Shown: positions 9,416 to 10,983 of the stretch, piece by piece
How positions within the stretch are numbered: the stretch's first letter is position 1
How the letters are laid out: every line of letters begins with the position of its first letter
Source of the DNA: a virus
Lineage: Duplodnaviria > Heunggongvirae > Uroviricota > Caudoviricetes
Strand: one strand, 5' to 3'
Length of the DNA: 10,983 nucleotides
IMG/VR virus record: IMGVR_UViG_2585427760_000002
Span: 1 to 10,983 of that record
The notes under the pieces: generated by a model
The model's input: only the letters and a program-made list of their open reading frames with translations
Told to the model about the DNA's origin: nothing
The model's database searches: none
Translations under genes and position numbers: made by a program

Positions 9416-9812
9416 GGCGGTGCAGTACGTCCGGGAGAACCCGGACAAGCTGCATATGTTCGTGGACAAAGGCGCAGTAGTGGCGACCGGCGCGCCGTCT
9501 ATTTCATGGGAATACCGGTACACCCTGAACGTGGTGGTAGTCGATTTTAGTGGTGACCAGAATTTACTGATGGCGCCGATCCTCCAGTGGCTGAGTGTTA
9601 ACCAGCCTGACGCCATCAACAACCCGGAGCTGAGGGAAAAACTTTTTAGTTTTGAAGTGGATATCCTGCGCAATGATATTTGCGATATCAGCATAGACCT
9701 GCAGCTGACGGAGCGTGTTGTGGTCAGCACTGATGGCGGTGTGTCGAGCGTGGAAGCCGTGCCGGAGCCGGAAAACCCTGATGATGCTATGTGGACGGTG
9801 AAACGTGGATGA
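9378..9812 (+). CDS. R: Tail completion protein R (P2 gpR-like), about 144 aa from GTG 9378
   Basis: The translation (...SLRHALNKAVQYVRENPDKLHMFVDKGAVVATGAPSISWEYRYTLNVVVVDFSGDQNLLMAPILQWL...) is recognisable as P2-family gpR. AGGAG at 9365-9369 sits 8 nt before GTG 9378; the track's start at 9357 is a TTG inside lysC and is less likely. Confidence 0.85.
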   Translation: MNKPQSLRHALNKAVQYVRENPDKLHMFVDKGAVVATGAPSISWEYRYTLNVVVVDFSGDQNLLMAPILQWLSVNQPDAINNPELREKLFSFEVDILRNDICDISIDLQLTERVVVSTDGGVSSVEAVPEPENPDDAMWTVKRG

Positions 9813-10251
9813 GCTGCAGCAGGTTGATGCGTGGCTGACGGCGCTGCTGGCGAGCCTTGCCCCGGCAGAACGGAAGCGAATGCTGCGCGAGCTGGCGCAG
9901 CAGCTGCGCCGGACGCAACAACAAAACATCAGGCTGCAGCGCAACCCGGACGGTAGCGGATACGAGCCGCGCCGCGTCACGGGACGCACGAAGCAGGGGC
10001 GCATCAAGCGGCAGATGTTTTCTAAGCTGCGTACCGCAAGATACCTGAAAGCCACCGCCAGCGCAGACTCTGCCAGTGTGCAGTTTGAGGGGAGGGTGCA
10101 GCGCATTGCTCGTGTACATCATTACGGCCTGCGTGATCGAGTCAGTCGTAAGGGGCCGGAGATCCGATACACTAAACGTCAATTACTCGGATTCAGTGAT
10201 AATTCTCGCTTATTGATTCGCGATGTGCTGTTACGTTTTATAAATTATTGA
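9805..10251 (+). CDS. S: Tail completion protein S (P2 gpS-like), 148 aa, GTG start
   Basis: The translation (DELQQVDAWLTALLASLAPAERKRMLRELAQQLRRTQQQNIRLQRNPDGSGYEPRRV...) is recognisable as P2-family gpS. The GTG start overlaps the R stop. Confidence 0.87.
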   Translation: MDELQQVDAWLTALLASLAPAERKRMLRELAQQLRRTQQQNIRLQRNPDGSGYEPRRVTGRTKQGRIKRQMFSKLRTARYLKATASADSASVQFEGRVQRIARVHHYGLRDRVSRKGPEIRYTKRQLLGFSDNSRLLIRDVLLRFINY

Positions 10252-10270
10252 ATGTGATAATCCAATTTAG

Positions 10271-10720
10271 TCATTTATTATTTTTAAGTTTTTTGGATAA
10301 GAAGAATAATCCAGCGATACACATTATTAACAATGCTACGGAGATTGAATGATGTATTGTCCATTTGTCTGGATCTATAACTGAAAGCATAAGGAGTATT
10401 ACGGAAGCTATGCCCAGCATTATAGGCTCGACTGCTTCGTCAGGACCTTTTGTTATCAGCATAAATGCAAGTTGGAACCCACATGATACAGCCAGTGCTT
10501 TGGCAACATAACTTAGGGTTTTTATTTGTCGTATATGAGCAAAGAACGGTTGTGATGATATATCAATTGGCCAGAATGTATCTACTAATTCAACTGTGCC
10601 TTTGAATAAAAGGAACCCTGTTAAACCGACAAATATAAGTCGTTGGCAAAAAAACTGAATTCTATCTGCAGATTTTTCAGTTTCGGATTTATTTTCATCT
10701 TCAATGTCTTCGATGTCATC
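10271..10720 (-). pseudogene. 3' portion (about 149 codons) of an AT-rich cargo gene encoding a multi-TM membrane domain, apparently interrupted by IS1
   Basis: My own minus-strand translation shows the frame stays open from the IS1 junction (10720) to the stop at 10273-10271, about 149 codons with no stop in roughly 30% GC DNA. It reads DDIEDIEDENKSETEKSADR (acidic linker), then about four hydrophobic helices (IQFFCQRLIFVGLTGFLLF, LSYVAKALAVSCGFQLAFMLI, VEPIMLGIASVILLMLSVI, ISVALLIMCIAGLFFL), ending KKLKNNK. The first canonical start is the ATG at 10462 (the 63-aa ORF in the track); no ATG/GTG/TTG lies upstream of it in frame, so the frame most likely continues from beyond IS1. Confidence 0.5.
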
Positions 10721-10983
10721 GGTAATGACTCCAACTTATTGATAGTGTTTTATGTTCAGATAATGCCCGATGACTTTGTCATGCAGCTCCACCGATTTGA
10801 GAACGACAGCGACTTCCGTCCCAGCCGTGCCAGGTGCTGCCTCAGATTCAGGTTATGCCGCTCAATTCGCTGCGTATATCGCTTGCTGATTACGTGCAGC
10901 TTTCCCTTCAGGCGGGATTCATACAGCGGCCAGCCATCCGTCATCCATATCACCACGTCAAAGGGTGACAGCAGGCTCATAAG
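10721..10983 (-). mobile_element. IS1: IS1 insertion sequence, partial: 263 bp from one terminal inverted repeat; the rest lies right of the window
   Basis: GGTAATGACTCCAACTTATTGATAGTGTTTTATGTTCAGATAATGCCCGATGAC... at 10721 onward is the IS1 terminal inverted repeat in reverse orientation, followed by the insB 3' coding region. IS1 is 768 bp. The flanking 9 bp (10712-10720, GATGTCATC) would be the target duplication, but the other copy is outside the window. Confidence 0.92.
10736..10983 (-). CDS. insB: IS1 transposase InsB, C-terminal part (partial); the C-terminal approximately 19 residues differ from the canonical InsB I recall
   Basis: The minus-strand translation ...[61 protein letters not shown]... 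matches IS1 InsB. After LSFS the window reads [13 protein letters not shown] with a stop at 10756, whereas the InsB I recall ends [20 protein letters not shown] with a stop at 10736. This is consistent with a 1-nt shorter A-run (TTT at 10796-10798 on the plus strand). Confidence 0.85.

Follow-up and report, generated by a model that had tools for sequence, protein, structure and literature searches.

The window, by which we mean the whole 10,983-nt stretch of DNA that was analysed, carries a truncated cargo gene of a P2-like prophage at 10271-10720 (minus strand). Of its 186 codons, the 3′ four-fifths remain, namely codons 38-186, followed by the TAA stop. The gene was cut by an IS1 element and the copy in the window is a pseudogene, as translation, an intact allele and 34 homologues all indicate. 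The intact product is predicted to be a polytopic inner-membrane protein with a conserved GPDEA motif. From the company that this family keeps, we give about an even chance that the intact protein is a prophage-expressed anti-phage function acting alone at the inner membrane.

IS1 interrupts a 186-codon gene

The minus-strand frame contains 149 sense codons from 10720 to 10274 and is closed by TAA at 10271-10273. The first-pass annotation, made from the letters, had put the chance of such a frame well below 1%. Calculated with the region's own base composition, the probability of 149 stop-free codons was about 2e-5 per frame, and when the region was shuffled, 0 of 5000 shuffles reached 149 open codons in any frame. 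A start scan for ATG, GTG and TTG from the IS1 boundary found ATG at 10462 as the earliest in frame, and the ORF list confirmed the earlier statement that no start codon lies between the junction and this ATG. The start left after the insertion is Met124 (10460-10462, minus strand; ORF list and translation), which gives only TM4-TM5 in a 63-aa product. The missing start codon within the window is the sole point in favour of an alternative in which no gene exists here, merely a chance open frame in an AT-rich spacer with IS1 lying between genes. This alternative is refuted by the homologues, 34 of them with invariant residues plus 469 wider relatives, and its probability is close to nil. The shuffles never attained the observed length, intact 186-codon alleles exist, and compared with a 90%-identical allele the differences are mostly synonymous third-position changes.

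Two intact alleles were found, one at 92-652 of a 1.3-kb Logan contig (L003) and the other at 42-602 of a contig (L053) on IMGVR_UViG_2859243816_000004. The latter differs from the window by 2 mismatches in the 520 nt compared, and the C-terminal 149 aa are identical. The intact gene has 186 codons and its product reads MTPTSVITFLLIAAVVIAFFGKEQFKKDVMNIFRYKI / DDIEDIEDENK..., the slash marking the IS1 site. Comparison of the window with the intact alleles placed the insertion point between codons 37 and 38 (...AAGATA/GATGACATC...), so the suggestion that IS1 interrupts a longer gene proved right. The upstream region, the start codon and TM1 were removed by IS1 from the cargo gene; the 37 missing residues comprise this single N-terminal helix together with a short stretch of basic residues. 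No large upstream sensor domain was lost to IS1, as the intact allele adds only those 37 residues. The proposed inactivation also held: with the start codon and TM1 cut off and no usable start before Met124, the copy in the window is a pseudogene, non-functional whatever its former role. The public gene call for a near-identical allele (P0001, on L003 92-652) begins at an internal Met and is 157 aa long, and the L003 ORF extends to 186 codons with the N-terminal membrane helix included. Because this call starts internally, database lengths for the cargo family may be under-called.

The rest of the window, 10721-10983 on the minus strand, is the terminal 263 bp of the IS1 element with the insB 3′ end towards the junction, as determined by megablast, translation and comparison with the intact alleles. 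The IS1 terminal inverted repeat GGTAATGACTCC starts at 10721, with the marker of IS1 membership read as GGTAATGACTCCAAC. In a megablast search of E. coli genomes, 10721-10983 showed 96-98% identity to thousands of annotated IS1A/IS1B copies, and the InsB C-terminus is readable on the minus strand of the piece; both the terminal inverted repeat and the insB coding end are those of IS1. A full IS1 element is 768 bp long and duplicates 8-10 bp of its target, usually 9 bp. Some of the megablast matches seemingly reached 25-40 nt into the cargo gene, an overshoot best explained as an artefact of ranking, with more than 72,000 hits in the search. The junction 10720/10721 was fixed because the intact allele shows uninterrupted sequence there.

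Over the 2.8 kb compared, a sibling contig (L052, IMGVR_UViG_3300029846_000109) matches the window without a difference, and the IS1 junction is the same in both. The sibling contig stops 81 nt into IS1, and the window too ends within the element. Neither the predicted far junction (the 9-bp repeat with the IS1 end) nor the 5′ fragment of the interrupted gene was found in viral and metagenome collections, and a deletion or rearrangement may lie beyond IS1 in the window's genome.

Two further observations concern the IS1 piece itself. The insB stop at 10738-10740 shares its frame with the cargo fragment, six codons upstream of it (...HYQ-stop-VGVIT/DDIED). Read-through transcripts from IS1 could cover the cargo fragment, and a fusion protein is not expected. 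At 10796-10798 the IS1 copy has three T, compared with four at the corresponding site in the sibling contig and in canonical IS1. Owing to the one-T-shorter run, the insB frame shifts about 21 codons before its stop and the listed ORF 10756-10980 ends early. The three-T run may reflect either a genuine mutation or an error in reading the homopolymer.

Architecture and conservation of the protein

Kyte-Doolittle hydropathy gave five hydrophobic segments in the intact protein, at about 5-21, 58-82, 103-127, 137-152 and 162-178. AlphaFold2, used with a 147-sequence alignment and for the monomer only, returned an all-helical model (pLDDT 89.9, pTM 0.78) with helices at 4-21, 23-39, 50-86, 95-102, 105-124, 134-151 and 159-184. 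The fragment in the window retains four of the five membrane helices, opens with the acidic stretch DDIEDIEDENKSETEKSAD and closes with the basic tail SKKLKNNK. An acidic segment, about four TM helices and a basic C-terminus had been described earlier from the letters, and both predictors agree with this description. The predicted order of parts in the intact product is TM1, a charged linker, TM2, a variable periplasmic loop, TM3, a KGPDEAVEP turn, TM4, a short loop, TM5 and the tail. By the positive-inside rule, the predicted topology is N-out/C-in, so that linker, GPDEAVEP turn and tail would all be cytoplasmic.

All parts retained in the window lie on the minus strand. The charged linker at residues 22-57 has 9 K/R and 11 D/E (counted over residues 22-60); its remaining acidic part, codons 38-57 (DDIEDIEDENKSETEKSADR), occupies 10661-10720 and is predicted to be cytoplasmic from sequence and charge count. 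Codons 58-82 (10586-10660) encode TM2, which was delimited by hydropathy, the AlphaFold2 helix 50-86 and alignment columns and contains invariant Q59, Q63, K77, G78 and E81. Codons 83-102 (10526-10585) form the loop marked as variable by pairwise identity, predicted to face the periplasm. The invariant core of TM3, the KGPDEAVEP loop and TM4 (codons 103-152, 10376-10525) was defined by pairwise identity and the motif. Finally, codons 153-186 (10274-10375) encode TM5, preceded by a short loop that contains the invariant W157 and followed by the basic tail, as judged from the alignment, hydropathy and AlphaFold2.

Conservation is concentrated in the core. The turn between the third and fourth helices reads TKGPDEAVEP, and the signature of the core within the P2-clade family is SCGFQLA[YF]ML[IV]TxGPDEA[VI]EPIMLG. 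Mean pairwise identity was 0.83 in TM3, 0.93 in the GPDEAVEP turn and 0.83 in TM4, as against 0.15 at the N-terminus, 0.22 in the charged linker and 0.29 in the loop 83-102. Members of a second subfamily, from Klebsiella and Citrobacter, have no TM1 and carry a 20-30 residue insertion in the loop 83-102.

The S-V spacer is an optional cargo site

The window holds the late region of a P2-like prophage. Q and P are encoded on the minus strand, and the plus strand encodes O, N, M, L, X, the lysis genes, R and S. In its head genes, the prophage shares 90% identity with Yersinia phage vB_YpM_MLG42 and about 84% with Fels-2-type Salmonella phages. The tail-completion gene S (9805-10251, plus strand, a 148-aa ORF) forms the left border of the cargo slot. 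Its protein shares 40% identity with P2 S and 57-75% with S from other P2-like prophages, and PF05069 (Phage_tail_S) is present on S of the homologous neighbours. The GC content changes from 0.58-0.63 through gene S to 0.35-0.42 beyond about 10200, and 10252-10720 has 35.2% GC compared with about 58% in the flanks; this profile bears out the remark in the first-pass annotation that the DNA turns strongly AT-rich right after the S stop at 10251. The cargo fragment begins 19 bp past this stop and ends precisely at the IS1 terminus (10721).

Homologues from E. coli (P0002), Klebsiella (P0032; 145 index blocks of the collection), Citrobacter (P0029) and Pantoea (P0017) all lie between S and V, antisense to both. 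In IMG/VR, the family was found on 14 contigs, 12 of which have it flanked by both S and V; the other two end early and show S only. The occupancy of the slot was surveyed in the 80 IMG/VR phages with the S proteins nearest to that of the window (L054-L133). The S-V spacer was empty in 58 of them (74-77 bp, GC 0.51-0.64) and filled in 22, with inserts of 550-2015 bp at GC 0.30-0.36 and the main ORF antisense in 21 of the 22. By blastp at E 1e-4, the inserts fell into at least 11 unrelated clusters, and the window gene grouped neither with P2 Orf30 nor with any other slot cargo. The spacer behaves as a hotspot: about 70% of the sampled relatives have nothing in it, and where it is filled there is mostly one gene. 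The window gene has the marks of hotspot cargo, namely patchy presence in collinear phages, deviant GC and its own orientation, and the optional filling of the slot supports the moron-type AT-rich cargo gene that had been proposed after S.

Five of the slot clusters were matched by PADLOC: PDC-S31 (two), PDC-S59 (E 2e-197), a PD-(D/E)xK/NucC-like nuclease and Septu PtuA. The remaining occupants match DUFs only. PADLOC holds only defence models, and for that reason its matches among the slot cargo are one-sided evidence. The slot also receives at least five mutually unrelated predicted membrane proteins, those of the P2 Orf30, L058, L096 and L095 types and the window family. In two contigs (L137 1405-2883 and L140), a 193-aa family member stands beside a co-oriented 286-aa PDC-S31/DUF2971-like gene, both within the slot; the latter protein is also the sole slot occupant in other phages. 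A simple scan found no sigma-70 site upstream of the intact allele and the simple terminator scan gave nothing informative, so that expression of the cargo in lysogeny is assumed.

The first-pass annotation had placed orf30 of P2 after S, and correctly so: P2 Orf30 (P2p15, NP_046770) is encoded between S and V, on the strand opposite to theirs, a position that the window gene shares. Like the window gene, it is antisense and AT-rich and encodes a predicted membrane protein. It is annotated as nonessential, has 261 aa and three hydrophobic segments, and differs from the window protein in helix layout. Homology between the two was rejected (hhalign probability 0.2, E 0.3), and the cargo protein had no tblastn match in 50,697 phage records.

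The location of the gene raises the possibility of an accessory role in the phage's own lytic cycle, either as an antiholin-like factor in lysis timing or as a membrane factor in tail assembly. The holin-endolysin-LysA/B cassette is no more than 1.5 kb away from the gene, tail genes adjoin it, and family members occur in P2-like phages of four genera. However, the gene runs counter to both late operons, the 58 phages mentioned above have nothing in the slot, others fill it with unrelated genes, P2 has a non-homologous, nonessential gene there, and the composition looks foreign (35% versus about 58% GC). Such a role is very improbable.

P2-like phages keep anti-phage genes in accessory hotspots (PMC9122126, PMC13586616). 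The P2 hotspots in the literature are old/tin, near cos, and Z/fun (PMC9122126; 10.1101/2024.10.15.618418). Additional hotspots within tail genes have been mentioned (PMC13586616), and one phage paper notes another ORF between V and S (PMC6823313). These papers describe neither the S-V slot cargo nor the window family. The S-V (orf30) site resembles old/tin and Z/fun in carrying variable, AT-rich, defence-rich cargo between conserved phage genes, but it is a distinct site and mostly holds a single gene.

The other cargo site of the same prophage (1-1790) is likewise broken. The end of an IS5 element lies at 1-474 with the TTAG target at 475-478, and the ORF listed at 405-1790 represents the C-terminal end of a PDC-S06-like protein, with about 438 codons and a match to positions 328-727 of the 732 in the PADLOC profile (E 9e-159). 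In a sibling contig, the PDC-S06-like gene is intact and free of IS5 (L151 4914-7268). Because this sibling has the IS1 junction in common with the window but no IS5, the IS1 insertion is probably older than the IS5 insertion.

Relatives of the protein

A protein search returned 34 relatives of 183-235 aa, none of them named or carrying a Pfam domain. The cargo gene was absent from 5,426 complete E. coli genomes in megablast and blastn searches; no annotated E. coli copy was usable, since the family is rare in this species. The plasmid search gave two weak or unannotated matches. On a 634-kb plasmid of Pantoea sp. Lij88 (NZ_CP118267.1 370302-370725), a 62%-identical match is split into two pieces where no gene is annotated, perhaps as a further copy that is disrupted or was missed by annotation. 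Neither the single sequence nor profiles of the cargo protein matched anything in Pfam, PHROGs, NCBIfam, PADLOC or the PDB sequences. PADLOC 2.0 gave 0 families at E<=10 for the window fragment and none that was meaningful across 147 superfamily members, and fold searches returned generic helical bundles only, with no structural relative tying the protein to a known mechanism.

An exhaustive profile search, on the other hand, collected 469 representative proteins at E<=1e-3, 174 of them at E<=1e-10. They share the signature YML(F/I/V)TxGPDEAxxP, in the form [YF]ML[FIV]TxGPDEA[VI]xP, between the third-last and second-last of four core helices. In the longer version, ...LAxSxGxELAYMLFTxGPDEAxxP..., the buried E/D corresponds to Q120 of the P2 clade, and most of the inspected members of the wider family have E or D at the position equivalent to 120. 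Codons 123-136 of the window gene encode FMLITKGPDEAVEP, which places its product in this GPDEA-motif four-helix superfamily. Members come from Alpha- and Gammaproteobacteria, Actinomycetota, Acidobacteriota, Chloroflexota, Bacteroidota and Firmicutes, and all are labelled hypothetical.

The neighbours of 35 distant homologues were compared. No partner gene was shared among them and they were mostly housekeeping genes, and for this reason the superfamily as a whole is not visibly defence-linked. The reading that the protein has a conserved partner was rejected; P2-clade members are single genes, except in L137 and L140 with the independent PDC-S31 gene alongside. A few members do have suggestive company. 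In Saccharicrinis aurantiacus (L040 6669-8270, P0168), a 533-aa fusion protein combines a putAbiC domain (E 3e-18) with the GPDEA module at its C-terminal end. In Ancylomarina longa (L031 322-3494), the gene order is an AbiC-like gene, a module-only gene, an unknown 193-aa gene and an AbiP-like gene. The association with AbiC is confined to these two related Bacteroidota genomes, in one bacterial order; putAbiC (PF16872) was present in 1 of 147 relatives, as the fusion, and the window protein has no Pfam domain. Among the outgroup members, the Paraburkholderia copy adjoins an integrase-arm gene and a block of hypothetical genes, and the Aeromonas copy adjoins HipA_2/DUF3037; these are mobile or toxin-like neighbourhoods.

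The scatter of single distant homologues among housekeeping genes would also suit a cargo gene that serves host fitness and is unrelated to phages, such as a membrane channel, a transporter subunit or a stress or toxin-immunity protein. Some distant members adjoin membrane-stress genes (PspA-associated, Bax1-I), and no defence model matches the protein. We consider this unlikely, since every slot occupant that could be annotated is of defence type, the module is fused or adjacent to AbiC/AbiP-like proteins, and the family is rare and patchy, with 35 loci in about 185,000 species under the strict motif and none in the complete E. coli genomes.

A candidate anti-phage membrane protein

The first-pass annotation had proposed a defence-type membrane effector, and the support gathered for an anti-phage reading is by association. 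The reading was retained because defence-type genes occupy the S-V slot in sibling phages, because the prophage's other cargo gene is PDC-S06-like, because distant homologues are fused or adjacent to AbiC/AbiP-like proteins, and because the invariant core contrasts with the fast-evolving exposed parts. The PDC-S31 gene beside the family member in L137 and L140, the mobile or toxin-like settings of the two outgroup members and the anti-phage content of hotspots in P2-like phages point the same way. The links to AbiC/putAbiC (PF16872) and AbiP are ones of fusion and neighbourhood only, in Saccharicrinis and Ancylomarina; the putAbiC domain is missing from the window protein and from all P2-clade members.

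If the protein does act against phages, the fast-evolving N-terminal and periplasmic parts could sense an incoming phage or its disturbance of the membrane. The invariant TM3-turn-TM4 hairpin, which carries a buried polar residue (Q120) and an acidic turn and probably works in an oligomer, would then open an ion leak and abort the infection. We put forward this sensor-effector mechanism only tentatively and regard it as somewhat unlikely, although it is slightly favoured over a block of DNA entry because the core hairpin is conserved across phyla that share no particular phage machinery. The model for the ion-leak idea is lambda RexB, a prophage four-helix membrane protein of the RexAB abortive infection system. 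RexB resembles the window family in being small, polytopic and located in the inner membrane, and in being expressed from an accessory locus of a prophage. RexB needs its partner RexA, whereas the window family has no conserved partner, and similarity to RexB was not detected in PADLOC, Pfam or PHROGs.

In superinfection exclusion, the inner-membrane protein of the lysogen would instead block entry of the incoming genome, and the cell would survive. This possibility is rather unlikely, and nearly as likely as the ion leak. Several features are in keeping with it: the membrane protein is small and polytopic, lacks any soluble or enzymatic domain, is borne by a prophage as a single gene antisense to the late genes and varies most in its periplasm-facing parts. 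Because unrelated membrane proteins recur in the slot, with at least four others there (P2 Orf30 and the L058, L096 and L095 types), a recurring envelope-level function would fit. P22 SieA, T4 Imm and HK97 gp15 are likewise phage-carried, small single-gene inner-membrane proteins without an enzymatic domain, and SieA is described as a superinfection-exclusion membrane protein (PMC10883804). However, these three have no detectable homology to the window family, no similarity to known exclusion proteins was found in PHROGs or BFVD, and the near-invariant core of the family is kept far outside phages, in Actinomycetota, Chloroflexota, Acidobacteriota and Bacteroidota, which is unexpected for a protein specific to injection.

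Significance

Taken alone, the event in the window is ordinary: optional prophage cargo was inactivated by an insertion sequence. Its value lies in the family, a conserved membrane-protein superfamily of 469 representative clusters with no name or model in the searched libraries. The Enterobacterales members occupy one fixed slot of P2-like phages in every case examined, and sibling phages place recognised or candidate defence genes in the same slot. The family is therefore a cheap candidate for a new single-gene anti-phage membrane protein, and intact alleles exist, for example in IMGVR_UViG_2859243816_000004. In a broader view, which we hold as possible but clearly short of an even chance, the GPDEA four-helix module would be a new phylum-spanning single-gene membrane immunity protein, and P2-like phages would have an additional defence hotspot in the S-V spacer, to which unrelated small membrane proteins, including P2 Orf30, have been recruited time and again to act against phages. 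The company found in the slot offers a first functional hint for the long-unexplained orf30 position of P2.
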